A DNA stretch of 64,000 bases from sequence record NZ_CP137560.1; one strand, 5' to 3'. Both the position numbers and the translations under genes were made by a program. This DNA is from a plasmid. Below the pieces are notes generated by a model that did no database searches, was not told the origin of the DNA, and was given only the letters and a program-made list of their open reading frames with translations. How positions within the stretch are numbered: the first letter of the stretch is position 1; every line of letters begins with the position of its first letter. Shown here in pieces: positions 10,269-64,000 of the stretch.

Positions 10269-10904
10269 TCAATCCTTCTCCATAACAACAAGTTCTCTGG
10301 GGAGGTTGATAATTTTCAACCTCTCAAACCAAAGCTTGGTTGAAGTGCTTTGATGACGCTTGATGTGACTATTGATAATGTAATAGTCTGCTTGATATTC
10401 ATCCATCAAGTCAGAGAATGCTGCTTTGATTCGAGAGCACTTCTCATTGATAGCATTGTCCAGGGGATTGGTCAGACGATTCACGGTCTCCACCATTTTG
10501 TCAGGGCCTACCCTATTTCCCACCTCATTATATATTGCGAGCAATTCCTCACGGTAATCTATCAAGTTCTTAAACTCGATACCTTCTGGATGATTCAAAA
10601 AAAGCATATATAGAGACTTGTGAATAGGGCTAAGCATCACTTCCTTGTTTCCATAGTTAGGTAAAATGAAACGAAAGTCCTTGGTAATGACCAAGGGACT
10701 GAGCGTTGCCCTTGCCGCCTCGATGCGAAGTTGCTCAAGAACAGGCACACTGATAGCCTTAAGCAAAAGGTCTGTCCTGCCCTCTGCCAAAAGATCGGTG
10801 GAAAGCAACTTCACTTGTGTTGCTTTCTCCTCTGCGGTCATATTTCTTGCCTCTTCTTGCTTCATGGTGCAAAAATACAAAAAGAATGGGAAAAATAATT
10901 TCAC
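10269..10904 (-). CDS. Hypothetical protein. The likely true start is at MKQEEARNMTAEE (~10865).
   Basis: 211-aa ORF, divergent from the ftsZ-like gene. No recognised motifs. Confidence 0.5.
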   Translation of the reverse strand: MKLFFPFFLYFCTMKQEEARNMTAEEKATQVKLLSTDLLAEGRTDLLLKAISVPVLEQLRIEAARATLSPLVITKDFRFILPNYGNKEVMLSPIHKSLYMLFLNHPEGIEFKNLIDYREELLAIYNEVGNRVGPDKMVETVNRLTNPLDNAINEKCSRIKAAFSDLMDEYQADYYIINSHIKRHQSTSTKLWFERLKIINLPRELVVMEKD

Positions 10905-10965
10905 TCATTCCAAAAAATATCTTTTGCAAGGCTTGCGGACAAGAAAAACTTGCAATATTAATTTC

Positions 10966-10973
10966 TTTTATAT
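10966..10973 (+). promoter_or_regulatory. TATCTTTG (-7 TAnnTTTG) promoter element upstream of the ftsZ-like gene.
   Basis: Exact match ~30 nt upstream of ATG 11006. Confidence 0.35.
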
Positions 10974-11005
10974 ATCTTTGCCCAAAAATTAAAAAATGAT
11001 ATGCA

Positions 11006-12373
11006 ATGAAAGAAGAATGGACTCCCATAGATTTCGGACAGACTGAGGATACCACCAAGAACATCATCAAGGTCATTGGTGTTGGCGGTGGTGGCTGCAA
11101 TGCTGTCAAGAACATGTACGCTGAGGGTATTGTCAATGTGAGCTTTGCCGTCTGCAACACGGATAGCCAGTCGCTGTCCAAGTCGCCTGTGCCAGTAAAG
11201 ATTATGCTGGGCAAGAGTGGCTTGGGAGCTGGTGCCAATCCAGAGGTGGGTAGAAGCGAGGCACAGAATACTCAGGAAGACATCAAACGGCTCTTGAATG
11301 ACGGCACCAAGATGGTTTTCGTCACGGCGGGTATGGGTGGTGGCACTGGAACTGGTGCTGCACCAGTTATCGCGGGTATAGCCAAGGGGATGGGCATTCT
11401 AACGGTAGGCATCATCACCATTCCTTTCTACTTTGAAAAAAGGAAAAAAATCGTAAAGGCTCTTCAAGGTGTGGAAGAGATGCGCAAGAACGTGGATGCT
11501 TTACTCATCGTCAACAACGAACGTCTTTGTGATGTATATGCAGACTCAGAAATTACCGTAAAGGATGCTTTCAAACTGGCAGACAAGGTATTGAGTGATG
11601 CCACTAAAAGTATATCGGAGCTAATTACTGTAGAGGGAACCATCAATCTTGACTTCCGTGACATCGAGACTACCATCAAAAGCGGTGGTGGAGCTATCAT
11701 GGCCATGGGCAGAGCCAGTGGTGAAAGCAGAGTTCAGAATGCCATCAAGAATGCCTTGGATTCTCCCCTACTCTATGGCAGCGACATCGGCAATGCCCAG
11801 CGCATCCTCTTCAATATTTACACTTCCAGCAAGCACCCTATCTTTGTTAGAGAAATGCGAGAGATTGATGCTTTCTTTGATGAACTCAACCCGGATATTA
11901 AGGTAATTTGGGGCCTTTCTGACGACGATAGTCTGGATGAAGATGCCAAAGTTACCATCCTGGCAACCGGTCTGAACAATGAGATAGCGGAAGAAGTACC
12001 GGAAAACTCCACTATATCCAAGGATGAGGAAGATTACCAAAGAATCATAGACAAACTCTATCATCCAATAAGAGACAGTTTCAAAGCACGAAAAGATAAA
12101 ACTATTCAGAAAGAAAATATAGATAACAATCATTTGGACAATACTAAGAAAGAGTCTAAAGATGAAGATTTTAAGGCTGAAGCTGTTGAAGAAATGACTA
12201 AGGTTTCAATAAAAGACAATTCACACCCAACAAATGTCTCTGAAGAAACTTCTGAAAAACCATCAGAAACAAAGCCAAAACCATTAACTATGAAAGGGAG
12301 AATCAAAAATGGTCTTATAAAAATAGCAAAAGACTTGGAAATCATCACATATGATGAAGAAAACTACAAATAG
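11006..12373 (+). CDS. ftsZ: FtsZ-family tubulin-like GTPase. This is an orphan paralogue with a long K/E/D-rich C-terminal tail and no FtsA-binding C-terminal peptide.
   Basis: [14 protein letters not shown], tubulin signature [20 protein letters not shown] and [12 protein letters not shown] blocks. No ftsA or ftsQ neighbours. The C-terminus is [11 protein letters not shown]. Confidence 0.8.
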
Positions 12374-12398
12374 CTTCCCCCCTTCTTAAATGATATAT

Positions 12399-12441
12399 CT
12401 GCAGTTATCTCTCTACCTTTAAGGTGTGAGTTAACTGCAGA
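12399..12441 (+). terminator. Hairpin terminator after the ftsZ-like gene.
   Basis: CTGCAGTTA...TAACTGCAG inverted repeat. Confidence 0.4.
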
Positions 12442-12456
12442 ATCAAAAACATTCCA

Positions 12457-12795
12457 TCAGTCAATGGCTATGCCAATCGTTAAGAAAGAAATATCAGAAA
12501 TTGCTTCCAAATGATGTTTACTTCCTGCTTTAACCAAGACATACGTATCCTTAGTAAATGGTATTTCCGAACCATCTACCCACAAAGTACCCTCACCAGA
12601 AAAACAAAGATAGTGTTCGTCCATTGTAAGATGTACATGATCCTCAACCACCTCCCCAGATAGAAGCTGCGTTTTAGCTATCTGAGTGACTGCTGAAGCG
12701 GTTTCATCATTGGCAAGTAATACTTGCTTCAGGCCTATTTGATGAGTCGTGGGAACAGGTACAATTTTCTGTAAATCTTTAATTACATATGCCAT
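12457..12795 (-). CDS. Cupin-domain small protein.
   Basis: GEVVEDHVHLTMDEHYLCFSGEGTLWVDG...VLVKAGSKHHLEA matches the cupin two-motif pattern (G(x)5HxH...G...H). Confidence 0.6.
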   Translation of the reverse strand: MAYVIKDLQKIVPVPTTHQIGLKQVLLANDETASAVTQIAKTQLLSGEVVEDHVHLTMDEHYLCFSGEGTLWVDGSEIPFTKDTYVLVKAGSKHHLEAISDISFLTIGIAID

Positions 12796-12962
12796 TTTTT
12801 TTATTCTAAATCAAAGATATTTATAATCAACTGATAATCAGTTAGTTAAAAGTTACATAGACATATATACATATAAACTCATTAATACGTTTACACTATT
12901 ACACGTTTACGCATTTATTCAAAATCAAAATAAAAGGAGAGTATTAAATACCCTCCCTATTT

Positions 12963-13481
12963 TTAGAATAATCCTTTTTTCTGTATTGCATTTTTTATCT
13001 CAGCCAATTCACTGGCATTTTTCTCAATAAAAGTTCTAAGAGCTGCACACAGAACCGTACGGATAGAAAATCTTGGGTCATAATCCTTCAGGATGGAAAA
13101 TGAATCTACTAATTCATCATTAAGCCATACAGCTCTTCCTCGCCCCGGTTGACCTGCATAATAATCAACATACTTATTGAAAATGTCCATTTCTGAATCT
13201 TTTTCACCTATTTCAATGGATCTTTCAGATAACTTTGTGGACTTCCTATATTTACCATATTGGGACTCCCCTACTTCCACGTCTGGTTGTTTTTTAACAG
13301 AAGAAGCAGCAACATGCGCAGAGACAGGCTCTTCTTTAGCAACCTCAGGGGTTTGTACTTGTTGGTCATTCTTATTTTCCTTACCTACGGTCTTTTGACC
13401 ATGCATATTCTGAACCATGCCCTCCAAATCAGGAGAAAGACCAATCAACTGATCAGCAGGAATCTGTTTATTACGAATCAT
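12963..13481 (-). CDS. DUF3408-like protein, the ParA-associated partner typical of Bacteroidales plasmids and conjugative transposons.
   Basis: Sits immediately downstream of ParA in an operon-like arrangement. The C-terminal helical segment resembles Bacteroides DUF3408 proteins. Confidence 0.4.
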   Translation of the reverse strand: MIRNKQIPADQLIGLSPDLEGMVQNMHGQKTVGKENKNDQQVQTPEVAKEEPVSAHVAASSVKKQPDVEVGESQYGKYRKSTKLSERSIEIGEKDSEMDIFNKYVDYYAGQPGRGRAVWLNDELVDSFSILKDYDPRFSIRTVLCAALRTFIEKNASELAEIKNAIQKKGLF

Positions 13482-13486
13482 AAGCT

Positions 13487-14173
13487 TTACTTGGATTTAG
13501 GATAGATAATTTTATTAATTGCTTTAAAAGTTGGCTCAACTGCCTTTTTCTGAGAAGGCAGCAATTGAAGTGTATTGTAACGTTGAATATCTGCCAAGGC
13601 ACGAATACTCTTAACTATCTTACCAAAACCGGCCAAGAGAGAATCTGTAGCCGACCAGGTAGAAAGTTCAGCCTTAGTTCCAATTCTGGTATCAATTCTG
13701 TTTGGAACAAGAATAATCTCTGGATTCATATCCTCATATGTGGCTTGAAGCATATTGATTACCTTCAAAAAAGTGGAAGTAGAACCAATACATCCCTTTT
13801 CATATTGATAAGGGGTTACAATGACATCGGCACCAACAAAAATTGGAACCAAACCCTCTTGGGCAATATTACCAGGAGCATCAATCAATACGGTACCAGG
13901 AATTTCTTTAGCCTTTTGAATCATTTTAGCCACATCCTTTGGATCCTTAATACTAAATGCCTGAACAGAGTAAGGTATTACATCATCCTCCTCCATCAGA
14001 TTATTCTCATCAAACTGACGAGTTTGAAAGATGGTCTGCTGCATATCACAATCTATAACACAAAGAGGATAACCCTGCTCATGTAAATAGTTTGCATATA
14101 AAATACAAAGAGTAGTTTTACCCACACCACCCTTTTGGTTTGCGAATACTATTATTTTATTTTGATTCTTCAT
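13487..14173 (-). CDS. parA: ParA/MinD-family partition ATPase.
   Basis: Deviant Walker A KIIVFANQKGGVGKTT. 228 aa. Confidence 0.85.
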   Translation of the reverse strand: MKNQNKIIVFANQKGGVGKTTLCILYANYLHEQGYPLCVIDCDMQQTIFQTRQFDENNLMEEDDVIPYSVQAFSIKDPKDVAKMIQKAKEIPGTVLIDAPGNIAQEGLVPIFVGADVIVTPYQYEKGCIGSTSTFLKVINMLQATYEDMNPEIILVPNRIDTRIGTKAELSTWSATDSLLAGFGKIVKSIRALADIQRYNTLQLLPSQKKAVEPTFKAINKIIYPKSK

Positions 14174-14199
14174 ACTTGTATGACATTTTTAATATGGCA

Positions 14200-16700
14200 C
14201 AAAGATAAGCATAAAAATCTAAAGAACATCAAAGAAAGCTGAAAATAGATAGATTTTTATACTTATTTAATAAAAACATAGATATATAGACACATTTACA
14301 GCATTATATATCGATACATTTATGCGTTTACTTGTTTATACATTTATTTTTAAACGCCATTTTTTAAGCAAAATAGTGTTATTCATCTGTATTTCAACAC
14401 ATTTCACAATCAGAAGAAAACATTCAAATTACAAATATTACACGTTAACGTATTGACGTTTTTACATGTTTATCTAGAGAATTTATTTCAAAAAGCATTG
14501 ATTTTAAATAGAAATAATAGATACATTAACGTATTTATCCGTATATGTATTTATTTATAAATATATCTATCCGTAAATGTATTTACCCAGATCTTCACAG
14601 AACACTCCCCTACCCTAGAATTTAGGAACCACAGATTATACAGCAAAAAGTTATGCATTATCATCGACCACAAAAATAACGAGACCTTTATCCTTACCTG
14701 TAATTCGTGATACAGTATACAATAAGCACGTAGAATAGAAAAAACAACAGCTTACAACAACGGATAAAGTAGTTCTAAGAATATAAAGGTATACCATTAT
14801 CCTCTGGCGCTTATTAGCATACTTATAATTCGGAACTAATCAAAGAAAAAAAATCATTCCGGAAAAAACGACATAATTAAACACAAGACCAGAAGCACAA
14901 ATCAGGTTAACGCATATAGCTATATACATATTTACATGTTTACTTATCAACATTTTAAGCAATTTACTTCAAAAAAAAACAAATAGACAAAACGCTCAGA
15001 AAAAGAAATGATTCTCAAGACAATTTCAGAATTTATACAAAAGAAGATAAATAACACACGTTTACTTATTACTAAATTGACGGATATACATGTTTACACA
15101 TCCATAAGTTGATACGTATATTAATTAATATATTAACGCTTTGATGACATCGATACATAGACTCGTAAAAAAGTATAGACTTACAGATTAAGGCAGGTGA
15201 ATTGAGATTGAGATTGATCTACTATAAATTCAAGTTGCTGCAAGAAATCATATAAAAAAAGCACAAACGTATTTACACGTTGATTTATATATACATGGAC
15301 GTATTTATTTATTAATGTTATAACACGTATACATATTATCATATATACTTAACTAAAACCATTTTTATTGGTAAACTTATTAATGCCTAACATTCTCTTT
15401 GAGCGAATCAAAGCAAACTATGAAGCCAACAAAAAAAACGCAAATTTAAGATAAACCCAAAAGTTATATACCAGTTAAACAAAATCACCACAAAAGGTAG
15501 TGGGGGAGCATTTACTTATAAACACATTTACACATCTACATATAAATATCACATTAAAAGTAAAACATATATGGATTTATATATTGACGTGTAAATGTGT
15601 TAACAATTTAGAGATAAATTCCGATAAATCATTAAGAAACAGACATCTATAAGCAATAGACACATTTATGTATCAACGTGTAAATGTTTAAAAGCCAGAA
15701 AAAAGAGATAAAAACCAAGATAATGAGCAAATAAATGAAAAAAAATACAATTGACGTATTTACGTATAAACGTATAGATATATAAATCTATAAACAGATA
15801 ACTGTTACAGGTCATAGATGAATGACGAAAAAGCAAAAAGAAAGATCACCACTAATAAAAAAAGCAAAAATAACCATCTAAAAGACACAACACATAATTT
15901 TTTTGCCTTAAGGGAGACTTTGAAGAAGAATGGTACAAATCCACCTCAAAACAATAAAAAGAGCACAGAACGCAAATAAAAGCACAAGAACAGCATTTTT
16001 TTACGTTGATATTACAATTAGAGCAGTAATCTATTCTTTTTAAAAAGCATTTTTATTATCAAACCTAAATTCTAGAATCATTAAAAATAAAATTAAACTC
16101 TCAGAAGCTTCATAACAAAAAGCACAATAAAGCATTTATACGCTTACGTATTTACGCACATACGTGTTTACTTGTTTACCTGTTAACTTATTAACGTATA
16201 AATACATTAATAAAATAACTCATGAAAATAAACGAAGATTCAAGTAAGCAAAACCTAATACTATGAACAAAAAAGACGAAGTATCATGATAAAATAATGC
16301 AGAACATACTAAGTTTCATATGGAGTAGGAGGTAGATCGTCTCATAAAGCCAGATGATACAACCGTAATCAATAAACTTATAGACATATTAACGCGTTTA
16401 CTTGTTGATACATAAACTTATAAATCATCGGAAGAAAAAAAACAGAATTCAGGATTCCTCAGATCAAAGAACATACATAACAAACAGCAATGAACACATT
16501 TACACATTTACTTGTTGACGCTTTAACATATTAACGTATTAATTTAAAAAACATTTTTTCATAAGAAAATGAAATTTTAAGAGGAAAAATGAAAAAATCA
16601 AAATAAAAACATAAGTTTTTAATTGCACCTTTTGGATTTACAAAAAAAACATGTATCTTTGTAAGCGATTTAATTTTAAACCTATCTAGCACACGATTCT
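14200..16700. repeat. 2.5-kb ORF-free, extremely AT-rich region holding more than 30 copies of a 9-10-nt motif (A)CRT(A/G)TTTAC (also seen as CACATTTAC and CGTTTAC) in both orientations. Candidate centromere or iteron field.
   Basis: Direct reading gives examples such as aacgtatttacacgttg (15265), cacatttacacatttacttgttgacg (16497), ttgacgtgtaaatgtg (15582), and cgtatttacgcacatacgtgtttacttgtttacc (16150). The six-frame track shows no ORF of 60 aa or longer. Confidence 0.75.
16653..16660 (+). promoter_or_regulatory. TATCTTTG (-7) with a TTTG element ~20 nt upstream. Candidate promoter of the rep gene.
   Basis: ...ttttggatttacaaaaaaaacatgTATCTTTGtaag. Confidence 0.35.
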
Positions 16701-16766
16701 GTTTGTATAATTGGTCTTAAATGGCTATATACCAGCCTATGAAGCATCTGGCAAGACAGAATCGTA

Positions 16767-18035
16767 TTGACTAGAGAACTTAACAAAAGGAGTAACAATA
16801 TGCCAGAAAATAAAAAAAATGAAATACAAAATTCAAGCGTGGGAGAGATTTGGATAAATACCCCATTCTCATTCACAAAAATAGACAAGCAATATACCCT
16901 TGCTCAACAACACGTTCTATTTTGCGTAAGTTCGCATTTACAGGAATACGTTACAAGATATTTCAATGAAAAGCGAGAAAAAGGAAATTTACGCTCAGAC
17001 TACATGTTTGAGGTGGACAAAGAACATGTGGCTATGAATGTGCCTAGGATAAGGATCAAATTAAGCGAATTAGGGATAGAATCAAGCCATTACAAAGATG
17101 CACGTAAAACATTGAAAGATCTATTGGACTTCAGTGTAAGAATAAAGATTGACGGAAAAGCAGTAATTCAGCACGTCTTTTCAAACATCACTGAGGACAT
17201 CGTAACCAATGGATACACAAAAGATGGCGTTTCCTATGACAGGTCTAAAGGTGAAGTAGAATTGAAGATTGACCCAGTTGTGGCAAAATACGCATTTGAC
17301 ATGAGCCAGGGTTTTATTCACCATATGGCCTTAATTGCTCGTTATGCTAGCAGACTGAACACGCCAAGAGTTTATCTCTTTCTTCTGCGGCAGATGGGAA
17401 TCAACAATAAAATGACGATAAAGATACCTTTCATGCAATTAAAGGAATATTTGGGAATGGCTAAAATTGCAGAAGACGGGACTGTAGAAGAAGAACAATA
17501 CCCAAAATTCTCTCAATTTAAGAAACAGGTACTTGACGCTGTTCAAAAAGATTTTGCAAAATTGAGCAAGGAAGACAAAATTGATATCATATTCACAGAT
17601 TGTACTCCAGTTTACAAAAGAGGAAAATCTCGGGGAAATCCAGAAGAACTGATATTCAAAATTAAGAGAACTGCACTGGGTAAAGCTCACATCAATGGAA
17701 AAACCATGGAAAAGAGGGACTCAACACCATCGAAGAAATCGAAGCAGCCTGAAATGGGTGACTTATTTGCCCATGTTGCTCAATCAGAAGATCAAAAAAT
17801 TAAAATAGAGCAGGGTGGGGAAGACAAATGGAAAGAATTCCTCTCGATGGTAATAGATCCTGCTCAACAAGCACTTTTAAAAAGAATAGAATTCCTGGGC
17901 ATGAAGAATCAGAGATTCTGTGTGAGAGCAACAGAGGAAGACTTTGATTTATTAAAGAAACTGGGAGTAGAAAAAGTAGCTCAGCAATATTTCAACTGTG
18001 TAGGTTCATACTCACCTACTTTTTATGCAGGTTAA
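16767..18035 (+). CDS. rep: Plasmid replication initiator (Rep_3/RepB-like winged-helix initiator).
   Basis: The N-terminal block FTKIDKQYTLAQQHVLFCVSSHLQEY resembles the Rep_3 'LSLxEQKLLLxxISKI' DNA-binding region. It lies between two iteron-rich noncoding regions. Confidence 0.55.
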   Translation: MTRELNKRSNNMPENKKNEIQNSSVGEIWINTPFSFTKIDKQYTLAQQHVLFCVSSHLQEYVTRYFNEKREKGNLRSDYMFEVDKEHVAMNVPRIRIKLSELGIESSHYKDARKTLKDLLDFSVRIKIDGKAVIQHVFSNITEDIVTNGYTKDGVSYDRSKGEVELKIDPVVAKYAFDMSQGFIHHMALIARYASRLNTPRVYLFLLRQMGINNKMTIKIPFMQLKEYLGMAKIAEDGTVEEEQYPKFSQFKKQVLDAVQKDFAKLSKEDKIDIIFTDCTPVYKRGKSRGNPEELIFKIKRTALGKAHINGKTMEKRDSTPSKKSKQPEMGDLFAHVAQSEDQKIKIEQGGEDKWKEFLSMVIDPAQQALLKRIEFLGMKNQRFCVRATEEDFDLLKKLGVEKVAQQYFNCVGSYSPTFYAG

Positions 18036-18045
18036 ATACGAATAT

Positions 18046-18095
18046 AGCCGTAGATTATACCAGATAATCTATGGCTATATTTTTTATTTTTAAAA
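18046..18095 (+). terminator. Rho-independent terminator after rep.
   Basis: atatagccgtagatt...aatctatggctatat hairpin followed by ttttttattttt. Confidence 0.5.
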
Positions 18096-18099
18096 CCAA

Positions 18100-20200: not shown

Positions 20201-20601
20201 TTTGGTTTGCTATAAGAATTGTTGAGTCTAGAACTAAAGTTTTTCCTATCTTTATATCCTCATCATTTTTTATAGATGCTAATTATCATCTCATGGCTTT
20301 TTAACGTGCAAAATTATAATAGTGAAGACAGATACCAAACACCAATTCTTTATAAGTAGAGAATCTTTTTCAGCAGTCTTCCTGAATCATAGATTAAGGT
20401 ATTCTAAAAATGATTCTCTGCTGATTGTTTGGTTTTCTGTCTTTTGTCCCTAATATATTAAAAGCACGTAAAAAGGCTATGTGATGATGGTTATGCCGGA
20501 ATGAAAAAAAACTCGGATTTCAGATAAGATAAGTTCTAAAAAGGCTGTGAATCCAAAAATCCAGAATGATATTAATGTTAAACATTTAAATTGAAAAGAA
20601 C

Positions 20602-20940: not shown

Positions 20941-21041
20941 AGGAAAAAAAGGTGTACCATACTCAATATGTGGCACACCTTTTTTCCTTATTTTTAGATT
21001 ATTCTTTTAAAAAATGACCAGAGTAGCAGGATGACGGTATA

Positions 21042-28119: not shown

Positions 28120-28121
28120 AA

Positions 28122-53043: not shown

Positions 53044-53073
53044 TGTTCTCTAAATTAAATTATTATTCATTGA

Positions 53074-54609: not shown

Positions 54610-54626
54610 AATGATGTATTGTGAAG

Positions 54627-55301: not shown

Positions 55302-55311
55302 TGTCTTTTAA

Positions 55312-55836
55312 TTATAATGGAATCTTAACTCCCAGTGAAACACCAGTCTTGAACCGATCTTTAGCTCTAATGGTAATGTCTTCCTTGATAGCAAAGAATA
55401 CACTCCAACCATCATATAGGTTATAAGTATGTTCATACCCCAAATGAGCAGCACCTATAGCTTTCTCAAAATCACTACCAGCACTGGCACCGATTCTTAA
55501 GCTACCGTGATGGTTGCGGCCTCTTGTTACACAGGGCTTATAAGCAACGCCAATCATCCAGGTGTTATAATGATGCCAAAATGATTTCGGAGTAATGTGT
55601 CCAGCTTCCGGGTCATCTGCATATTGAATGGAGTAACTACCAAAGTACTCCCAGGCATGATGATAGTCACCTTCCTTCTCATAGGCCAGAGTAGCTTCCA
55701 TGGTCTTTGGATATAAGACACCCAAGGAAACTTGAAGGTGGCTTCCATGACTTTGTGCCACCATACTGGTAGGAATACCTATGACCATAAAGGACATAAG
55801 CACTGCTTTTTTGAACTTCTTGATTATTTTGTCCAT
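55312..55836 (-). CDS. Outer-membrane beta-barrel-type protein.
   Basis: Signal peptide, alternating aromatic/hydrophobic strands, and a C-terminal ...GVKIPL. Confidence 0.45.
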   Translation of the reverse strand: MDKIIKKFKKAVLMSFMVIGIPTSMVAQSHGSHLQVSLGVLYPKTMEATLAYEKEGDYHHAWEYFGSYSIQYADDPEAGHITPKSFWHHYNTWMIGVAYKPCVTRGRNHHGSLRIGASAGSDFEKAIGAAHLGYEHTYNLYDGWSVFFAIKEDITIRAKDRFKTGVSLGVKIPL

Positions 55837-55989
55837 GTGCTATAGTTACTTTATTGTTCTCTTAATAGAATGGAGTCGAAGGAATCCGCAGCAAGCAAAT
55901 CCTCATAGTCCAGATTGATGGATATATTTCTACCGCTAATTTGCTTTTCACTCAGAGAGATGCTCAATACCTTGTCGTTAGGAAAGGTC

Positions 55990-56140
55990 ATCTTTATAAT
56001 CCGCAAAACGAAATGTTCGTCAATCGTAAAACGAAACGATATATTTTCAAAACGAAACGTATATTTTTCGTTTCTCCCTCCATTACACAAATAATGTGAT
56101 TATAATCGCTTTTTAACGGCATTATAATCACATTATTTTT
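55990..56140. promoter_or_regulatory. Intergenic repeats: four AAAACGAAA(C/T)G direct repeats plus an AATGTGATTATAAT / ATTATAATCACATT palindrome.
   Basis: gcaaaacgaaatg..gtaaaacgaaacg..caaaacgaaacg..tttttcgtttc, then cacaaataatgtgattataatcgctttttaacggcattataatcacatt. Confidence 0.45.
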
Positions 56141-56563
56141 TTATATATCCTCATACTCTGACTTAGCGTCGAAACAAGGACACCATTTCTTCCATTTTTG
56201 GGGGTCGCTACCCCAAATATCTCTATGTCCCATAATTTGTGCGCCAGGGTATTGACGATGCAGCTCTATAAGCAATGATCTTAAAGCTATTTTTTGCGCT
56301 TCCGTTCGATTATCAACAGGCTTACCCTTACTATCAATACCACCCACGTATGCTACATTAATGGCAGTGGAGTTGTAGCCTTGTACTCCGTTACTGACCT
56401 TACTAATATCTAATAACTGATGCACAACACCATCCTCGGTCACTACCTTGTGATACCCTGGGTTCTTCCAGCCTTTCGCTCTGAACTCTGCAAGGAGTTC
56501 CTTAACTCCCCATTTCTGGCTCGAAGCCGTACAATGAACGAATATTCTTTCAATCTTTCTCAT
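56141..56563 (-). CDS. N-acetylmuramoyl-L-alanine amidase (Amidase_2/PGRP, T7-lysozyme-like endolysin).
   Basis: RIFVHCTAS, GYHKVV..DG, NVAYVGG, IMGHRDI, C..C. The start is placed at MRKIERIF. Confidence 0.75.
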   Translation of the reverse strand: MRKIERIFVHCTASSQKWGVKELLAEFRAKGWKNPGYHKVVTEDGVVHQLLDISKVSNGVQGYNSTAINVAYVGGIDSKGKPVDNRTEAQKIALRSLLIELHRQYPGAQIMGHRDIWGSDPQKWKKWCPCFDAKSEYEDI

Positions 56564-56782
56564 TTTACATAAAAATAAAATAATTAATAAGACTTCCAAA
56601 CACTATCACTACCGAATACCTTATCACGTCTTCCCACTCGAAATGTGAGAGGCAATAATGCTTATATTGATACATTTCTCTGCTTACCATTACAAGCAAA
56701 GCAAACAATCCTGTCAATATACCCATCAGTAGCCAACAAGCAAGACCGATACAGTCTCGCTTGTTGAGAGTAAATAACCTTT

Positions 56783-57307
56783 TCAGCATACGCAAAGCCA
56801 ATAGGTAAGATATACATCGAGGAATGCCGCCACCTCTGCCCAATAGCATCCGACAGCTTTCGGCTTTGCAGCAGGAGGGAAATAGATAATAAGCACCGCA
56901 ATAGCTAATAGTAGAGTAGGGGCAAGATTGACGCTTGAACACCAGCCTACACACCCGATAGCTGCCACAATAGCGCCACCTTTATGAATAGGGTAGGTGT
57001 CCTTATCTATATAATTAGGCGCTGCGCCTACAAACATTAATCCAGCGCACCCCAAGAAGACAAGGCATTGAATACCCTTATCAGAGCCGAGCAGAGGAAT
57101 GAGCATGAGAATAACACTCGTGAACATGACAAGCGTGAACACCCAACCATAATTGCACTTGCGTTTACCTCCGACAATCTCACTGTCAGCACAATTCTGC
57201 AACTGATAATACACATCGCTCACCATATCCGGAACACCGAACCGCATAGCTGCGAGAAGAAGAAATCCTCCAAGCAAGAGGAATGAAATAATACTTAATA
57301 CATACAT
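56783..57307 (-). CDS. Multi-pass membrane protein, possibly a holin-associated or lysis membrane protein.
   Basis: 174-aa ORF with four or more hydrophobic segments, directly upstream of the amidase gene. Confidence 0.4.
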   Translation of the reverse strand: MYVLSIISFLLLGGFLLLAAMRFGVPDMVSDVYYQLQNCADSEIVGGKRKCNYGWVFTLVMFTSVILMLIPLLGSDKGIQCLVFLGCAGLMFVGAAPNYIDKDTYPIHKGGAIVAAIGCVGWCSSVNLAPTLLLAIAVLIIYFPPAAKPKAVGCYWAEVAAFLDVYLTYWLCVC

Positions 57308-57367
57308 AATTTTTCATTTTATTTAGTTAAACATCACTATCATTTTCCCAATGCCAGGGAAATGATA

Positions 57368-57964
57368 TTATATTTTTAGATTGAGCTTTTCAGGATAGCC
57401 CGTCTTGTAATCATAGGCTTTCACCTCTTCGATGGTCGTCAACTTATTAACCTCTGCCTGATGAGTTGCGGTCACATTGTAGCAATCTTTTGCATACACC
57501 TCAATAGTACAGATAAGGTCTTGAGCCGCTGCGATGGGCATGACTAAACACTTTCCATCAAGCCAGAGACTCGTTTCTTCTCGACCCTTATAAGCAATTC
57601 TCTCATTACCGGCAAATACACGATCTCTCAGGTTGAAGTCGAGCCAGTGCTGCTCCCCGTTAAGGTAAAACGCATTGACGGCAGGAGATTTGTCGTAGGC
57701 AGTAATCTCTGCTATCTTATCAGCCTTTGCCTGTTCAAGTTTCAGTGCATCCATCTTAACCGAAAATTCAACAAATGCCTTCTGTATTTCTTCCTCGTCA
57801 AAGGCAGAAACTGCCATGGAGCACTCATAACATTCGTATGCGCCTAATTCCTTATTAAGCGCTTCCCCGATATGATAAATCATCAAGCTTCCAAGCTCAT
57901 ATTGCTTTTTGAAAGCTGCTTCCGGGATAATTGTCCTAATAAAATTAATCTTCATAATCGACAT
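57368..57964 (-). CDS. Hypothetical 198-aa protein.
   Basis: ORF directly downstream of the RT gene on the same strand. Confidence 0.45.
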   Translation of the reverse strand: MSIMKINFIRTIIPEAAFKKQYELGSLMIYHIGEALNKELGAYECYECSMAVSAFDEEEIQKAFVEFSVKMDALKLEQAKADKIAEITAYDKSPAVNAFYLNGEQHWLDFNLRDRVFAGNERIAYKGREETSLWLDGKCLVMPIAAAQDLICTIEVYAKDCYNVTATHQAEVNKLTTIEEVKAYDYKTGYPEKLNLKI

Positions 57965-57972: not shown

Positions 57973-59130
57973 TTAAACCTTAAATTTATTCATAATCTTG
58001 ATAACCTTCATATTCTTACAATAGAGTCTGTCTTTGTGTGGCATCATCATCCAGGCTTTGCGCCTTATGTGATAGCTGTCACAATAGGCAAGCAGTCCCA
58101 TCAGACTATTGATGCGTCCGACGTATCGTTTTAAGACCTGGCTCGTGGGATTTTCGATCATCCCGAGCTCGTCTATCACGGCATACAGTCGTTCCACTGT
58201 CTGTCTGTTAGGAACAAGTCTGTGAGGTCTTATCATCGTGCCGATGAATCGAACGCCATTGCTCACTCTCTGCAAGGAGATTTTGCGAGGATGTAGCGTC
58301 AATCCTAATTCGTCTCTCAGATATATCCTGCCATCTTGCAGGATGCGATGAAGCAGTCTTCTATCCCTGTTGATGACGATGAAGTCGTCGACATATCTGC
58401 CATATCCACCGTCCGTACCCACCGCCGAGACCATCATCTTATCGAAGTCGGACAACAGCAAATTGGCAAGCAACTGACTTGGAAGATTACCGATAGGAAG
58501 GCCCTTATTCTTGTCACATGTGAACAGCGACTTATTTTTGGGCAGTATATCGAATAACTTCAGGTTGCCGGTCTTGACGCAGTTCTTTGTTGGATCATGC
58601 AACACCACTATCTTCCACAACCATAGCCACCACTCGATATCCTTACCACGATACTTCGTCCTAATCAGCCGTTCCAGTTTGTCATATAACATTTTTCTAT
58701 CGATACTCATGAAAAAGCCCTGAAGGTCGCACTTAAGAACCCAAGCCTCCCGAGTATAGCCTTCGCTCACCCGTTCCATCTGGGCCTTAACCTGCTCGAC
58801 ACCGTAAAGAACACCCTTACCTTGCCTACAAGCAAATGCGCTATCGGTCAGTTCGTCCTCAAGAATATCTCCAAACTTCAACGCAAGAAGATGATGCACG
58901 ACTCTGTCGCGGAAATGAACACAGAACACCTCCCTCAACTTTGGACGAGTCACACAGAAAGCCTTGCTTGGACCTATCTTGTAGGTCAGCCGGTTAAGGT
59001 CTGCGTACAGCTGATAGTTGTTGATTATCGCCTCTGCCTGATAGCTTACACAATCGTCGGTCGAAGTCTTATGCTTGCAGCAGTCGATATACGCCTGTCT
59101 AATATCCTCGATGGAGACATACTCTTGCAT
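57973..59130 (-). CDS. Reverse transcriptase of a diversity-generating retroelement.
   Basis: YGRYVDDFIVI (YxDD catalytic box). The 385-aa size is typical of DGR RTs. It lies adjacent to TR and avd. Confidence 0.85.
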   Translation of the reverse strand: MQEYVSIEDIRQAYIDCCKHKTSTDDCVSYQAEAIINNYQLYADLNRLTYKIGPSKAFCVTRPKLREVFCVHFRDRVVHHLLALKFGDILEDELTDSAFACRQGKGVLYGVEQVKAQMERVSEGYTREAWVLKCDLQGFFMSIDRKMLYDKLERLIRTKYRGKDIEWWLWLWKIVVLHDPTKNCVKTGNLKLFDILPKNKSLFTCDKNKGLPIGNLPSQLLANLLLSDFDKMMVSAVGTDGGYGRYVDDFIVINRDRRLLHRILQDGRIYLRDELGLTLHPRKISLQRVSNGVRFIGTMIRPHRLVPNRQTVERLYAVIDELGMIENPTSQVLKRYVGRINSLMGLLAYCDSYHIRRKAWMMMPHKDRLYCKNMKVIKIMNKFKV

Positions 59131-59197
59131 GATAATTTGATTGTTAGATATACAGAAGGATGGCGAAAAGAATCGGGCATCATCAATATGTGATAAT

Positions 59198-59289
59198 CGA
59201 AAACTGGCAGTACGACGTTGCTGTTCGTCTTGTTGTTGTTGTTCGCACCACTGTTGTAGATCCAGGCGTTACCAGCGCCGTTCTGCGTT
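59198..59289 (-). repeat. DGR template repeat (TR).
   Basis: A ~92-nt match to 59881-59972 with 6 mismatches. All mismatches fall at plus-strand T, which is A on the coding minus strand. Confidence 0.85.
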
Positions 59290-59402: not shown

Positions 59403-59759
59403 TCACCTCTGCGAAGATCCGAGAGAACTCCTTCGCCATCCGTATGCAAATTGTAGCAGCCTGTCTGTGAGTTTCGTCAGGTTTGTGGCCTTTCGAACAT
59501 CAAGATAGGCGAGGTCGTCGAAAATGCCGACGAATGTGCGTATCTCCCGGACAATCATGATATACTCGTCTATATATTCCACACGTCTTGCCATGCTGCC
59601 GTTTGCCAGATACACCAAGTCCAAGGCTCTTGCTGACTTCTCTGTCATCCGTTCGTAGATACCATATCTCACCACCTTGCTAACATTCCTTCCGTATTCC
59701 AACAACAGCTTGCAGAGCAAGCGTGTATCCTTGTATATTCCCAATCCTTCCGCTAACAT
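59403..59759 (-). CDS. avd: Avd (accessory variability determinant) of the DGR.
   Basis: 118-aa helical, basic small protein positioned between the target gene and TR/RT, the canonical DGR order. Confidence 0.7.
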   Translation of the reverse strand: MLAEGLGIYKDTRLLCKLLLEYGRNVSKVVRYGIYERMTEKSARALDLVYLANGSMARRVEYIDEYIMIVREIRTFVGIFDDLAYLDVRKATNLTKLTDRLLQFAYGWRRSSLGSSQR

Positions 59760-59869: not shown

Positions 59870-61627
59870 TCAAGGGCAAGCGAAAACTGGCAGTACGACG
59901 TTGCTGTACGTCTTGTTGTTGCTGCCCGCACCACTGTTGTAGACCCAGGCGTTACCAGCGCCGTACTGCGAACTGGTCCATCGCCAATTGCTCATGACGA
60001 ACTTGTAGTAGGCGTTTCCCACGTCCTCGCCATACAATATGGTCAGTATCTGTTTGATAGGACTCGCATTCGCCATGTGGATAAATTCCTGTCCTGCCGA
60101 CATTTTGAACCCATGCAGCTCCTGACCACCAATACTGAATATCTGGTTGTAGGCGTAGTCTGCCGCCGGCACGGAAAGGCTTCGCTCCTGTGCCTCCTGC
60201 CGGATGAGAAAAGTGCCCGACTCGCCATTGTAGTAGTTGGCGTCTGAGCTAACATTGCCGTTTGAGGCGATGCTTGTAAACAGCAGCTGCTGTGTACACC
60301 ATGGCAGCTTGGGCAACTTGGACATATTTCTAAGGTCGGAGGTTCTAATCATGAACGTACCCTTATTGATCATCAAGGTGGAGTCCGCCACCTTTAGTGC
60401 CACAACATCCTCGCTGTCTCTGCCAGTCGCGACCCAACTGTCGATGTAATACTCGTTGAGATCACCATCCACTACAAAGACGCCTGCCTTAAATTGATAC
60501 ATCCTGTAATCCAATAATCTTTGCGGAACCGCCGCCGTGTAGGTCCTTGTGTTTTTGTTGAAACTGACATAGTAACCTTCTTGATTCTCGACCTTGACGG
60601 TATATTCCTTGCCGTAAGGCACATAGACTGTCACCTGTCCCTTGCTGTCAGAGTGATACTCAACGATCTTCTTGTCATAGGTTACCGACACAGGGATACC
60701 CTCGTAAGCGACGGCCTGGTTGTCTGCCCCATACTTGGTGACCGTCACCACCACCTTCTCACTTGAATCCTCGTCGTATGGCAGATAGCTTAGGTTAATA
60801 TCTCGACTCTCCAATACGGCGGTGAATCCCACAGGAGAGATTGGCTGCGCATTTCCATACTGAGGCACGCTCAGTTCATAATACTCACCTCTATGAACCT
60901 TGAAAACAGCCTTGCCATCATCATCGGTAACGAACGTCTGCGGCGTGGTGCCGTGGTTGTATCTCACAGCTATCGAGATGCCGCCTACCTTTACGCTCTC
61001 CACCGACGAAGTGATTGTCACCGTCACCACCTCATCGATGTCGCCCAAGTTGATACTCTTCACCTCCCCTTGCCGGTTGGTCACGGTAAGCACGTGATCA
61101 ACGAGGTCTGCGTTGACATTCTCGGCTGCCGACAGGGCGGTCTTGGCGTTCTTCGAAGCCTCGCTCGCTGTGTCCGCCGCTCTCTGAGCTGCATCCACAA
61201 GTCCTTTCGCCTGCGAGATGAGTTGCTCTAATTCCACGCTTGGAGGCAGTATCACCAAGGAGGTGTCCATCTCTACGCTGTTGTCTCCTTCGTCAGTTTC
61301 TCCAAACTCGGTGTCGCCGTCCTTATTGTACTCCACGATGGCTATCTGCTCGTATTCCTTGCTCTGCCATGCGTTGCCCAATTTTCTGCCGCTCACCACG
61401 AGCGAATAGACATCCTTCTTAACGCGGTCGCCCTTTACTTCAGCGATGATTACGTTGTCGTGCTCAATGTCGAGCGTGTAGGCGAGGGTAAGGATGGAGA
61501 AGCTGCCCACCAGCTGCACCTTAATGTCAGTACACCCTGTCAATGGGAACGGCACGATGTCGCCGTTTACTTTCTTCGACACCGGAATCTTCAGTGCGAA
61601 GTCATTTCCTTTCACTATTTTTTTCAT
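59870..61627 (-). CDS. DGR target protein: 585-aa putative receptor-binding or surface protein with the VR encoded at its C-terminus (CLec-like variable region).
   Basis: The VR overlaps the last ~30 codons (...NAWVYNSGAGSNNKTYSNVVLPVFACP*). A GC-rich inverted repeat (cccttgcc...ggcaaggg) lies just downstream, resembling the DGR cis-hairpin. Confidence 0.8.
   Translation of the reverse strand: MKKIVKGNDFALKIPVSKKVNGDIVPFPLTGCTDIKVQLVGSFSILTLAYTLDIEHDNVIIAEVKGDRVKKDVYSLVVSGRKLGNAWQSKEYEQIAIVEYNKDGDTEFGETDEGDNSVEMDTSLVILPPSVELEQLISQAKGLVDAAQRAADTASEASKNAKTALSAAENVNADLVDHVLTVTNRQGEVKSINLGDIDEVVTVTITSSVESVKVGGISIAVRYNHGTTPQTFVTDDDGKAVFKVHRGEYYELSVPQYGNAQPISPVGFTAVLESRDINLSYLPYDEDSSEKVVVTVTKYGADNQAVAYEGIPVSVTYDKKIVEYHSDSKGQVTVYVPYGKEYTVKVENQEGYYVSFNKNTRTYTAAVPQRLLDYRMYQFKAGVFVVDGDLNEYYIDSWVATGRDSEDVVALKVADSTLMINKGTFMIRTSDLRNMSKLPKLPWCTQQLLFTSIASNGNVSSDANYYNGESGTFLIRQEAQERSLSVPAADYAYNQIFSIGGQELHGFKMSAGQEFIHMANASPIKQILTILYGEDVGNAYYKFVMSNWRWTSSQYGAGNAWVYNSGAGSNNKTYSNVVLPVFACP
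59881..59972 (-). repeat. DGR variable repeat (VR) at the extreme 3' end of the target gene.
   Basis: See TR. Mismatches: TR t to VR a/c at 6 positions (gtTcg/gtAcg; ttgTtgTtCgc/ttgCtgCcCgc; agaTcc/agaCcc; cgtTct/cgtAct). The VR ends 8 nt before the stop codon. Confidence 0.85.
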
Positions 61628-61645
61628 AAGCTTATATAAAATTTA

Positions 61646-63982
61646 TTATGGACGATAATTCATGAATTGCAGTTGCCAAGCCCCACGGATAAAAACAAGG
61701 ATAGTAAACTGTCCTATCGTTCCCGAATAGAATCTATTGCCGGTATCGTATCTCGTCTGACCACCCCAATATATCGTATCGCCTTTAGGAGGAACGATAT
61801 ATACCCTTTTGTCATTACCTTGAATAATTATCAGCGTCTGACCATCAACAGGATTGGCAGGAAGTGTTAACGTCATATCAGAAGGATTTGTGCAAATAAC
61901 GATTCCGACGCCGTTTGATATTTGCTGAGTATCACTAATAATCTCTGTGTTCGGTGCTAACGCTCCTCGTATAGCGCCGTTTGTCTGTATAGCCGTTGGT
62001 GTACCCGAAAAACCCTTGGCAATAACATTTATAGCCAACGCAGGCGACTCTTGTTTACTCTGTTCAGAATAAATATACTGCACTGGTTCGTATTGGGTAT
62101 TATAATCATAATTTGTTGGAAGATTTACGTTGTTTACCGAACCTTTACAGACAATTCTTGCAGCATCTCCAAACCACACGGCATTAAAATAATTTAGAGT
62201 TGACTGATATGAAAACTCCGTACAGGACGCACCTACGCGAAAATAAGCAGTATTAGGTGAACCACCTCGGACAAATAACGGGCAATACTGAATACCAGTT
62301 ACAACAGTTGCACCATTATATTCTGTACACTCCGCTTGCATAATATCCCCCCAATTATCATCCTTTTTAATGCTCCATATTCCGATTTTGCTATCTCCTG
62401 TGACATTAAGCTTAGTAGCTGTAATCACCTGAGCATTGATACCTTTAGCTACGACGTCTCCTGCGTTGATGAATTTCGCATTGAGCTTTCCATTTTGAAA
62501 CATAGCAGCTTCGTCATAACCCTCTGAAGGATTGGCTTTCGGGGTTTTTACCTGTACTTTGTTTCCGTACAAGGTAACTTGGTCGCTCGTAATCTCTATA
62601 CCTGCTGCCTTCAGGCTCGCCTTATCCACAAGGTCACTTTTGCGCTCGGTGTATTCGGTAACAACCGCACCAGCTTCGAGCTTCGGCTGAGCAATGTAGC
62701 AGTTAGTTATAGGTGCATCACCTTCGCTGCTCTGTATCGTTCTGTTGAGTCTCAAAAGGACATACTTGTGCGAGCTGTCTGATGGTCGCCAATGTACCCA
62801 ATATTTTTTCCAATCGCTCGTCAGTTGGAAATTTGCTGCTCCATCTACTCTCGTAGCTGTTTCTCCTAAAGAGCTCTCAACGAATACGTCTGTCTCAGGG
62901 CTGTAGAAGTATGCTGTCAACTTACCAGTTCCCTTAGCCATGAACGAGAAAACGTAATCCTTGTTAGCCTCCAAGCCGAAAGGAACGAATCCCCCCGATT
63001 CTAATTTTCTCCATTCAAGAACATTATAATAGTAATCATTACCGACACTCTCAAACTCGCTGCCGTTGTACCTGTAGCATATTTCGGTATTACGTACACA
63101 GTATGTATCACCATACACGTTTCCCGAAGATGGGAGCTGGCTAAAGCTATTAACAGTTCCTTTCAGCACATAAGAGAACGACTTGTATATAGACGTGCTC
63201 TCGCCAAATCCTGCTGGAGTCAGCGAACCGTTAACATCGTATAGTGTACCCGACTTATCGAGCGACAATGTATTATCGAGCATGTTGCCACCTACGTAAT
63301 CGTAATCCTCTGTCGATAGCGTCCAGCCATTATAGGTATCGCCTTCCTCGACCATCGGGCGACAAATCCAAGCTTCAATACGACCATAATTGCCGTTGTT
63401 ATATTCAAAAAAGTTGAAGGCAATATAGTCATACTCCGCATCGGTTGTATCTATAATCGCCACGAATAATTCCCACTTATTCGCACTTTTGCAACGGAAA
63501 GAACTATTTGTGAGATATTTTGGACCTCCCATTCTTTGCGCGTTCGTCTGCTTGTCTGTATATAATGCTTCAAGGCAAAAGATTCCATTTGTGTCATTCG
63601 TCTTACAATAGCATGATATAACGTACTTCTTGCCCTTTGTTATCTTCACACTCTTACCTCCTTGCGAACCATCCCAGAAAGCGCCACAATAATGCGGTGT
63701 CCCATCCGTATCATCAATAATCTTGGCGCAGTTTGTACCCTGATAGCCAGAATTTATCTCGATACTTGCGGCATAGTTTAGAATACGATTATTATCATCA
63801 CGCAGGAACGCACTACCTATAAGTAGGTTTCTTCTGTCGATTATCTTCTCGCTTACCGAAAGTGAGATTTCCCTTGCGGTCTGCTCAAATTTCGACGTTG
63901 CGTCCTCCAGCTCGTCTTTAGTTGCAGCATTCTTTGACAATTCATCAAATTGTATCTTGTAGCTCTTATTATTAACAACCAC
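61646..63982 (-). CDS. Large tail-fibre-like / carbohydrate-binding structural protein (778 aa).
   Basis: Long Gly/Asn/Thr/Tyr-rich beta-type sequence with no enzymatic motifs, immediately upstream of the DGR target gene. Confidence 0.5.
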   Translation of the reverse strand: MVVNNKSYKIQFDELSKNAATKDELEDATSKFEQTAREISLSVSEKIIDRRNLLIGSAFLRDDNNRILNYAASIEINSGYQGTNCAKIIDDTDGTPHYCGAFWDGSQGGKSVKITKGKKYVISCYCKTNDTNGIFCLEALYTDKQTNAQRMGGPKYLTNSSFRCKSANKWELFVAIIDTTDAEYDYIAFNFFEYNNGNYGRIEAWICRPMVEEGDTYNGWTLSTEDYDYVGGNMLDNTLSLDKSGTLYDVNGSLTPAGFGESTSIYKSFSYVLKGTVNSFSQLPSSGNVYGDTYCVRNTEICYRYNGSEFESVGNDYYYNVLEWRKLESGGFVPFGLEANKDYVFSFMAKGTGKLTAYFYSPETDVFVESSLGETATRVDGAANFQLTSDWKKYWVHWRPSDSSHKYVLLRLNRTIQSSEGDAPITNCYIAQPKLEAGAVVTEYTERKSDLVDKASLKAAGIEITSDQVTLYGNKVQVKTPKANPSEGYDEAAMFQNGKLNAKFINAGDVVAKGINAQVITATKLNVTGDSKIGIWSIKKDDNWGDIMQAECTEYNGATVVTGIQYCPLFVRGGSPNTAYFRVGASCTEFSYQSTLNYFNAVWFGDAARIVCKGSVNNVNLPTNYDYNTQYEPVQYIYSEQSKQESPALAINVIAKGFSGTPTAIQTNGAIRGALAPNTEIISDTQQISNGVGIVICTNPSDMTLTLPANPVDGQTLIIIQGNDKRVYIVPPKGDTIYWGGQTRYDTGNRFYSGTIGQFTILVFIRGAWQLQFMNYRP

Positions 63983-64000
63983 AGAACCCGTAAACTTCGC

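Follow-up and report, generated by a model that had tools for sequence, protein, structure and literature searches.

Probable insertion of a Hankyphage-like transposable phage into the traN gene of a large conjugative plasmid-like replicon of Segatella

Introduction

Plasmid replication and partition genes, giant ArdC-like proteins and a set of phage lysis, diversity-generating retroelement (DGR) and tail-fibre genes lie one after another in a 64,000-nucleotide (nt) stretch of sequence record NZ_CP137560.1 (hereafter the window, positions 1-64000), raising the question of whether they make up one mobile element or several. A first-pass annotation had described the region from 10269 onward as a mosaic episome, and had offered a phage-plasmid or a plasmid carrying a prophage as its two possible natures, in preference to a chromosomal locus. 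We conclude, with a probability of about 0.88, that the window belongs to a large conjugative plasmid-like Segatella replicon with a Mu-like (Hankyphage-like) transposable phage inserted in traN, and that it comprises two nested elements, a plasmid backbone at 1-55994 and the right arm of the phage at 55995-64000. Both the plasmid and the prophage are elements of known kinds, and we take the host replicon to be a large extrachromosomal one of the Segatella (formerly Prevotella) copri complex, most likely of S. hominis. The headline of a mosaic episome was right in spirit, and the second of the two options was the correct one, as the phage is bounded by termini and a target duplication in traN; the locus is also no ordinary chromosomal one, being a plasmid-type replicon with conjugation-related genes. 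Every long open reading frame of the window was translated and then scanned against Pfam; a sigma-70 promoter scan was uninformative for Bacteroidota. Contigs used for comparison are referred to by L numbers.

Results

A Phage Terminus Interrupts traN

The plasmid (or large-extrachromosomal-element) backbone matches metagenome contigs at 99-100% nt identity over positions 1-13893, 15201-28121, and 43073-55994. As these contigs match from position 1 of the window, the element begins to the left of the window and not at 10269; the start given in the first-pass annotation was arbitrary, and the replicon covers the window from its first position and extends further left. Six contigs (L025-L030) are 99.9-100% identical to the window through position 55994 and then continue into an intact traN, followed by traM, traL, traK, traJ and, further on, traG. 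In these uninterrupted copies TraG, TraK, TraM, and TraN score over the NCBIfam equivalog/subfamily cut-offs, and TraJ is a weak match. What remains of the 849-nt traN in the window is its final 144 nt (55851-55994, minus strand, by alignment to the intact traN of L025). The gene is broken off between 55994 and 55995, precisely at the right terminus of a phage, whose insertion takes the last 47 codons off traN.

This terminus (55995-56059, plus strand) consists of TATAATCCGC followed by three AAAACGAAAYG repeats (3 matches vs. 0.12 expected), the next features being a hairpin and the endolysin gene. The repeat pattern was detected in 23 viral contigs of IMG/VR, in 22 of which an identical TATAATCCGC precedes the pattern and the sequence outside it differs from contig to contig. 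The terminal 21-mer is present in at least 120 IMG/VR contigs with unrelated flanks, many of them 33-45 kb in length, and among the matches listed it always lies at the end toward which the late genes are transcribed, that is, at right ends only. Contigs of this terminus family include close relatives of Hankyphage, with amino acid (aa) identities of 93% for the reverse transcriptase (RT), 75% for the minor tail protein and 67% for the tape measure protein. A search of the literature for the terminus sequence produced chance primer matches only. IMG/VR contigs of ~39 kb that end just past the amidase gene were considered as markers of the genome end and rejected, as they are without the terminus and run on into other phage genes.

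The exact endolysin protein of the window occurs in three insertion contexts. In the contigs that carry it an identical terminal 85 nt, ending ...GCGGATTATA, adjoins one of three flanks that have no relation to one another: the traN remnant (window and L264), a site beside tyrosine-recombinase genes (in five contigs, including one NCBI assembly) and a third, unrelated locus. The phages at the second and third flanks are 93-95% nt identical to that of the window. L264, a Logan contig from run SRR29689121, reproduces the junction of the window with 100% identity over 9877 nt. The opposite junction was found in L271, from the same run, in which traK, traL, traM, and the first 236 codons of traN are followed by TAAAGGGCACAAAACGAAGCG..., so that the contig encodes a 253-aa TraN fusion; this fusion is the NCBI protein WP_218456502.1 from Prevotella hominis, a member of the protein cluster of the intact TraN that is recorded on a 317,413-bp contig. 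The left phage end TAAAGGGCACAAAACGAAGCG... is common to eight IMG/VR contigs with different flanks and always begins with T.

Comparison of the two phage junctions, the right one in the window and the left one in L271, with the uninterrupted site in L025 gave a target-site duplication best read as 4 bp, AAGA on the traN strand, with its right copy at 55991-55994. In a second two-ended case, the 34.8-kb IMG/VR contig 128119, which has both termini, the duplication is CAAG. The two cases (n = 2) can be reconciled only by a length of 4 bp and termini of the form TA...TA, and the 5-bp reading AAGAT needs the conserved terminal T to be counted as target. If the insertion occurred by simple transposition, the left end would read ...CGCTTCGTTTTGTGCCCTTTA, then TCTT, the 5′ 708 nt of traN, and then traM.

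A join of this kind could also have been created by assembly, as a chimera of a phage contig and a plasmid contig, and it is true that DGR-bearing regions assemble poorly and that the exact DGR accessory protein (Avd) of the window was found on short contigs only. However, the break lies exactly where a terminus shared by at least 120 viral contigs has its first base, the separate assembly L264 reproduces the junction, the reciprocal left junction with its target duplication exists, and there is no repeat common to both sides at the join, all of which leaves a chimera with next to no credibility.

The boundary at the terminus is also one of gene content: when all window proteins were searched against viral loci by tblastn, every gene at or beyond 56141 had viral homologues and none at or before 55836 did. 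A true phage-plasmid (P1, N15, or SSU5-like), in which Rep and ParA would maintain the lysogen as an episome and the genes for lysis, DGR, and tail would serve the lytic cycle, would account for the presence of maintenance genes and phage late genes on one contiguous stretch, but we consider this option of the first-pass annotation to be very improbable. The backbone occurs phage-free in many independent contigs, at least six of them (L025-L030) having the tra operon intact at that spot; the phage block is delimited by a transposon-like terminus that is conserved in its family, and traN bears a target duplication; and the same or a closely related phage is found in other, unrelated flanks. Moreover, no homologues of backbone genes were found in the related viral contigs examined, and no relatives of Rep were found in IMG/VR. 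From the phage-free backbone, the precise terminus, the duplication, and the other insertion sites we conclude that the phage is a separately integrated element. The first-pass annotation had named, as the outcome that would speak against it, a chromosome on which these genes belong to separate, independently integrated elements with their own att sites; the part of this concerning a separately integrated element applies to the phage.

The mechanism we propose is that a transposable siphophage jumped into traN and left the 4-bp target duplication behind. Judging by the related two-ended genome of 34.8 kb, the prophage is probably complete, at ~34-36 kb, active, and mobile by Mu-type transposition.

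The Distal tra Operon

Adjacent to the traN remnant and on the same strand are distal genes of a Bacteroidetes-type tra operon (49820-55836, minus strand), which in order of transcription encode proteins of 174, 224, 511, 282 (M23 peptidase), 94, and 692 aa; the 511-aa protein is encoded at 53074-54609 and the M23 protein at 52195-53043. By look-up of the 511-aa protein we found that in L025-L030 all six genes stand directly after traG-...-traK-traL-traM-traN, on the same strand. Since the distal genes directly follow the transfer operon in these contigs, 49820-55836 is the end of the tra operon and not a phage lysis region. The first-pass annotation had taken 52-64 kb as a single phage block, with membrane and M23 peptidase genes for lysis; one M23 protein is indeed encoded between 52 and 55.8 kb, but it and its neighbors in that interval belong to the plasmid, and the phage part begins exactly at 55995. 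The 174-, 224-, 511-, and 692-aa proteins had no NCBIfam or Pfam match, and PDB searches with the 511- and 692-aa proteins were likewise without a match. The type IV secretion system (T4SS) content of the window itself is limited to the traN remnant and these distal genes. The disruption of traN, with its loss of the last 47 residues of TraN, would be expected to disable the mating apparatus of the plasmid.

The Phage Right Arm and its DGR

Inward from the terminus the phage arm is ordered as endolysin and membrane protein genes, DGR [RT, template repeat (TR), Avd, and target gene with variable repeat (VR)] and tail-fibre gene, with transcription toward the terminus; all the features described in this section are on the minus strand. 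The endolysin (56141-56599) is an Amidase_2 protein, as first annotated, with homologues of 84-89% aa identity in IMG/VR. Next to it are a hydrophobic membrane protein of 174 aa (56783-57307), which by its position may be holin-like, and a phage protein of 198 aa (57368-57964), both with homologues of 80% aa identity in the IMG/VR contig L056. In a further IMG/VR contig, L180, the host flank (nt 10535-10931) of a transposable phage is itself 77% identical to the phage lysis region of the window at 56939-57334, an observation that suggests tandem or nested insertions of related phages.

The DGR proposed in the first-pass annotation was recovered with all of its parts. The RT (57973-59130; Pfam RVT_1) is 67% identical at the aa level to that of L056 and 38% identical to that of Bacteroides phage F2, and its homologues are RTs of phage DGRs. 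The 93-nt TR (59195-59287) pairs with a VR at 59878-59970, and between them lies the gene for Avd (59403-59759; phrog_3206, E 2e-8). The TR and VR are 92% identical over 93 nt and all seven mismatches (7/7) fall on TR adenines. The VR spans the C-terminal 31 codons of the 585-aa target protein (59870-61627) and ends 8 nt short of the end of its gene; a homologue of 62% aa identity is present in L055, and an exact look-up of the target protein returned no match, as expected for a variable protein. With RT, Avd, and adenine-only differences between TR and VR all present, the DGR is genuine. The DGRs of phage BPP-1 and of Hankyphage vary receptor binding. In the window phage, the DGR presumably changes receptor specificity through the C-terminus of the tail protein whose gene is downstream of the tail-fibre gene.

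The tail-fibre gene, also in agreement with the first-pass annotation, extends from 61646 to 64000 and is open at the window end, such that the C-terminal 784 of ~1000 aa are encoded here. It matches tail-fibre PHROGs and has homologues of 48-52% aa identity in IMG/VR phages, in which they lie beside tail and tape-measure genes; the best homologue is 78% identical and 1006 aa in length, and the family is highly diverse. The IMG/VR contig L139 has the same gene order at 34-59% identity, namely tail fibre, DGR target, Avd, RT, two small genes, amidase and terminus. The tail-fibre/DGR module is mosaic, with its closest matches (64-77% nt identity) in IMG/VR phage contigs of 70-89 kb that are without the transposon terminus. 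A blastn search of the phage arm against phages produced no match.

Replication and Partition of the Backbone

The backbone probably replicates from an iteron-controlled Rep3-type origin. Its initiator (16767-18035, plus strand) is a Rep3-family protein, just over the Pfam cut-off (Rep3_N, 25.9 bits vs. 22.4), and directly repeated iteron arrays lie beside rep. The 22-bp iteron, GGTAAAYAGTTTCGTAGATAT, has 15 matches at three or fewer mismatches, all within 18112-20195 (0.01 expected), in tandem arrays at 18737-18842 and 20086-20198 and as dispersed copies in both orientations. A ParA-type partition ATPase is encoded at 13487-14173 on the minus strand (Pfam AAA_31, CbiA, MipZ), and a paralogue of the replicative helicase DnaB at 25223-26740, also on the minus strand (Pfam DnaB_C, E 1e-103). 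Rep, ParA, iterons, and DnaB had all been claimed in the first-pass annotation and all four claims held. Rep shares 78-84% aa identity with the Reps of closed Segatella replicons and of Prevotella contigs: the complete plasmid of S. copri 1A8_2 (40,375 bp), the extrachromosomal element of HDD05 (72,494 bp), and two uncultured or draft Prevotella contigs (a Prevotella sp. metagenome-assembled genome and Prevotella sp. CAG:732). On both of the closed Segatella replicons a homologue (75-80% aa identity) of the 1317-aa Schlafen/AlbA_2-domain protein of the window (21042-24995, minus strand; Pfam) adjoins rep, marking this gene as part of a conserved replicon module.

An index of public assemblies, gut metagenomes among them, has the exact DnaB protein in 134 of its blocks, and the dnaB gene of the window has ~75% nt identity over 474 nt to the chromosomal dnaB of Bacteroides. 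A 192-kb PLSDB "plasmid" of B. finegoldii (NZ_OY725914.1, L150) was considered as a dnaB-bearing relative; it is full of housekeeping genes, including pheT, lepA, and rnf genes, and we therefore discarded it as a mislabelled chromosome fragment. Megablast searches of 10-35 kb and 39-64 kb of the window against PLSDB and INPHARED returned no close match. Public assemblies, for the most part human-gut metagenomes, contain exact matches to backbone proteins in 54-473 index blocks.

The first-pass annotation had overlooked a paralogue of FtsZ (455 aa; 11006-12373, plus strand; Pfam Tubulin, E 6e-40, and FtsZ_C). This protein is full length and matches FtsZ in PDB (E 1e-73), has retained the GGGTGTG and NLDFRD motifs, is ~55% identical to the FtsZ of Bacteroidales and has a divergent C-terminal tail. 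Its gene adjoins cupin, 172-aa protein, and parA genes and is kept in all six backbone copies examined (L007-L012). The paralogue might have a role in segregation of the replicon or be a marker of a chromid-like replicon. The PLSDB matches to this FtsZ are probably mislabelled chromosomal fragments like NZ_OY725914.1.

The 172-aa protein (12963-13481, minus strand), which has no Pfam match, is encoded directly downstream of parA and conserved beside it in L007-L012; by this position it is a candidate partition adaptor. The region around parA (12890-16543, plus strand) is AT-rich, with a 28% GC spacer between parA and rep, and carries 8-bp-phased TTWAC repeats, with 12 matches against 0.06 expected, all inside the region and on one strand. 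These repeats are distinct from the iterons and may be a candidate centromere or an origin-associated element.

Polyvalent Proteins, Cargo, and the Left End

Downstream of the tra operon, at 37-47 kb, lies the gene set that the first-pass annotation had likened to a conjugative leading region. Such a region borders the origin of transfer (oriT) and is the first part to enter the recipient; neither an oriT nor a relaxase was found in the sequence searched. The largest gene encodes a polyvalent protein of 1458 aa (42925-47301, minus strand) with ArdC-N, MPTase-PolyVal zincin and MutS domain I (Pfam), which matches the ArdC structure 6I89 in PDB with an E-value of 2.4e-16. Of the two ArdC-like giant proteins in the first-pass annotation, this one is clear; the other, a 905-aa protein (37788-40505, minus strand) that is syntenic in L145-L149, has ArdC-N/zincin similarity below the Pfam threshold. 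Between them are a cell-wall hydrolase with glucosaminidase and M23 domains (41267-42703, minus strand; Pfam and NCBIfam), which bears out the lytic hydrolase of the first-pass annotation, and a 204-aa protein (40617-41231, minus strand) for which the SSB-like label is doubtful, as it scored 23 bits against the Pfam SSB cut-off of 26 and had no PDB match. We infer that the ArdC-type polyvalent proteins and the hydrolase serve transfer and establishment. Of the anti-defence and ssDNA-handling genes characteristic of leading regions (ArdC, SSB, PsiB), PsiB was not found among the window genes, where the ArdC domain is clear and the SSB match sub-threshold. A PDB search with the neighboring 377-aa protein (36183-37316) was without a match.

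Two candidate defence loci are present, and the Schlafen-domain gene beside rep is counted with them as defence cargo. An AAA_14/DUF4143 ATPase (48121-49452, plus strand; Pfam) corresponds to the candidate defence gene PDC-S01 (PADLOC, E 3e-91), and a GmrSD/DUF262-type nuclease pair (30373-34551, plus strand; Pfam; PADLOC HEC-06/SspE-like) is variable cargo that is present in L145 and L146, not in L001-L006 or L147, and in some backbone copies is replaced by a MoxR/VWA-type module. The meeting point of these two backbone variants is the position of an insertion sequence (IS; 28122-29723, minus strand; Pfam) with a DDE_5 transposase gene (28147-29586) and 29-nt imperfect terminal inverted repeats (28112-28140 and 29704-29732). 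Identity to six other backbone copies ends at 28121, the edge of the IS, which points to a rearrangement or deletion brought about by the IS in the window copy.

In the left part of the window, two pairs of direct segmental duplications (117-493/3961-4337 and 481-1122/6562-7200, 93-98% identity) flank the gene for a 752-aa protein and HAD-hydrolase genes. Upstream of the 752-aa gene, 1400-1522 (plus strand) scores 43 bits against the Rfam tRNA model. Its acceptor, D, and T arms are intact, a 61-nt stretch takes the place of the 11-nt anticodon stem-loop of the model, and ARAGORN did not call it; either a tRNA interrupted by an insertion or intron or a tRNA-like element may be present.

Discussion

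The Phage Compared with Hankyphage

Two features place the window phage with Mu-like elements: its conserved termini have sub-terminal repeated motifs of the transposase-binding type, and its family is inserted at many unrelated sites. The nearest described phage is the Mu-like transposable siphophage Hankyphage (Bacteroides phage p00, BK010646), which has MuA/MuB-like genes at its left end and a DGR in its right arm. The right end of p00 is of the same design as that of the window phage, with TAAATCCGG followed by repeated AAAAACGA motifs, the design shared by the two being TA(A/T)AATCCG(G/C) and then repeated AAAACGA motifs. Insertion at many sites is a further likeness, as is the order of the right arm, from tail protein through DGR target with VR, TR, RT, and a few genes to the right end. 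On the opposite arm, the gene order of L272, a contig that shares the left terminus, is CI/S24 repressor, 677-aa protein, AAA_22 protein, DUF3164 protein, and Mu gpG-like morphogenesis protein. The first 210 residues of the 677-aa protein, a putative transposase, are 34% identical to the MuA-like protein of Hankyphage (E 1e-28), and the AAA_22 protein is 27% identical over its full length to the MuB-like protein (E 7e-26), so that repressor, MuA-like, and MuB-like genes are in the Hankyphage order. A member of the right-terminus family, L197, has homologues of MuF, portal, and TerL.

The window phage differs from Hankyphage in several respects. Its proteins are distant from those of p00, only the lysin matching (34%); it has an avd gene and has its endolysin at the right end; and its host is Segatella rather than Bacteroides or Phocaeicola. 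Its target duplication, which appears to be 4 bp, would be a further difference.

The Replicon Compared with Known Plasmids

Circular large extrachromosomal elements (LEEs) of 72-329 kb have been described in the S. copri complex (Blanco-Miguez et al. 2023, PMC10635906), with an rRNA operon on 8 of 10 LEEs (PMC10635906). The window replicon resembles the LEEs and plasmids of S. copri in its host group, in its Rep (81% identical to that of HDD05 and 84% to that of the S. copri plasmid), in the conserved neighboring 1317-aa gene, in its many transposase, defence, and unknown genes, in the high structural variability of its copies and, as far as we can judge, in a GC content below that of a typical Segatella chromosome. 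In contrast, a T4SS, an FtsZ/DnaB paralogue, and a prophage were not described for the LEEs of PMC10635906, and the LEE of DSM 18205 in PLSDB had no nucleotide-level match to the window. By analogy with the closed relatives and with the LEEs of PMC10635906, we infer that this molecule is circular and extrachromosomal.

With TraG, TraK, TraM, and TraN, the uninterrupted backbone copies are like the Bacteroidetes-type (CTnDOT-like Tra) conjugative systems. The pMMCAT preprint reports that some copies of that plasmid harbor integrated IS elements and prophages, and also that pMMCAT is absent where Segatella dominates. The window replicon differs from pMMCAT in plasmid family and host genus and in that traN is disrupted in this copy, and from pMMCAT-type systems in that a relaxase and coupling protein were not found in the sequence searched. 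As in phage-plasmids such as P1, N15, and SSU5, phage and plasmid genes are on one molecule; unlike them, two separable elements with defined transposition junctions are present, and the plasmid has a conjugation system.

An alternative to an extrachromosomal replicon is a chromosomal region, or a chromosomally integrated conjugative element, that has received several independent integrations. The tra genes are of the "conjugative transposon" type usual in integrated elements, the FtsZ and DnaB paralogues resemble chromosomal genes, and the TraN fusion is recorded on an NCBI contig of 317 kb, longer than most plasmids. We regard this alternative as improbable, however, because ParA accompanies an iteron Rep that has homologues on closed circular Segatella plasmids and on a LEE, no housekeeping genes were found in the 64-kb window or in ~8 kb of its left flank, and the backbone has no visible integrase or att-like boundary. 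The carrying contigs in the public-assembly index are all 200 kb or less (the 317-kb NCBI contig is outside that index), and LEEs of up to 329 kb are documented in the species complex (PMC10635906).

Several observations weigh against our interpretation of a large conjugative Segatella replicon with a Mu-like phage in its traN. On the side of the plasmid, no relaxase, coupling protein, or oriT was found in a search that covered a small part of the replicon, namely the window, 7 kb on the upstream side of traG, and a set of unknown proteins. The 64-kb window has no rRNA operon, which is typical of most LEEs, and closure of a circle was not directly observed, the one hint of size being the 317-kb NCBI contig, known from its record only. 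On the side of the phage, the left arm with transposase and head genes lies beyond the window, ~630 bp of it having been recovered in L271, and the completeness of the prophage and its Mu-type transposase are drawn from relatives. The 677-aa putative transposase of L272 has no Pfam match, its MuA-like alignment being limited to the first 210 residues. L264 and L271 possibly derive from the same strain as the window, in which case they confirm the assembly without representing an independent insertion event. Finally, the target duplication reads as 4 bp in the two insertions available. That of Mu is 5 bp.

Implications for Segatella Plasmids and Their Phages

Segatella LEEs and plasmids, Bacteroidetes-type T4SSs, Hankyphage-like DGR phages, and prophages in large Bacteroidales plasmids (pMMCAT) are already known. 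The window adds a documented transposable phage in a conjugative plasmid, with exact termini and in a host genus other than that of Hankyphage, and a vague "mosaic episome" is resolved into two elements with base-pair boundaries. The exact left and right termini of this widespread gut phage family, TAAAGGGCACAAAACGAAGCG... and ...CGTTTCGTTTTGCGGATTATA, offer a means of locating such prophages, and the sites at which they are inserted, in metagenomic data.

The authors of the Hankyphage work raised insertion into plasmids or integrative and conjugative elements as speculation only (PMC12135933). Three members of the terminus family in IMG/VR have flanks similar to the window plasmid family or its S. 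copri relatives: that of L255 (nt 617-1350) has 97-98% nt identity to window positions 9658-10062, that of L137 (nt 2-429) has 80% nt identity to the RNase_T gene at 4359-4786, and that of L154 has 65% nt identity to the region upstream of rep on the S. copri plasmid L014. These flanks, together with the location of the present copy in traN, hint at repeated insertion into such plasmids. That Hankyphage-like phages repeatedly insert in LEE-type conjugative replicons of Segatella and use them as vehicles is a tentative proposal which we at present think unlikely. If the insertions are active, the plasmid could move the phage between Segatella species, and the phage could switch off conjugation by striking tra genes. 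A Segatella LEE-type replicon with a T4SS and its own FtsZ and DnaB also bears on the question of whether LEEs are plasmids or nascent secondary chromosomes.

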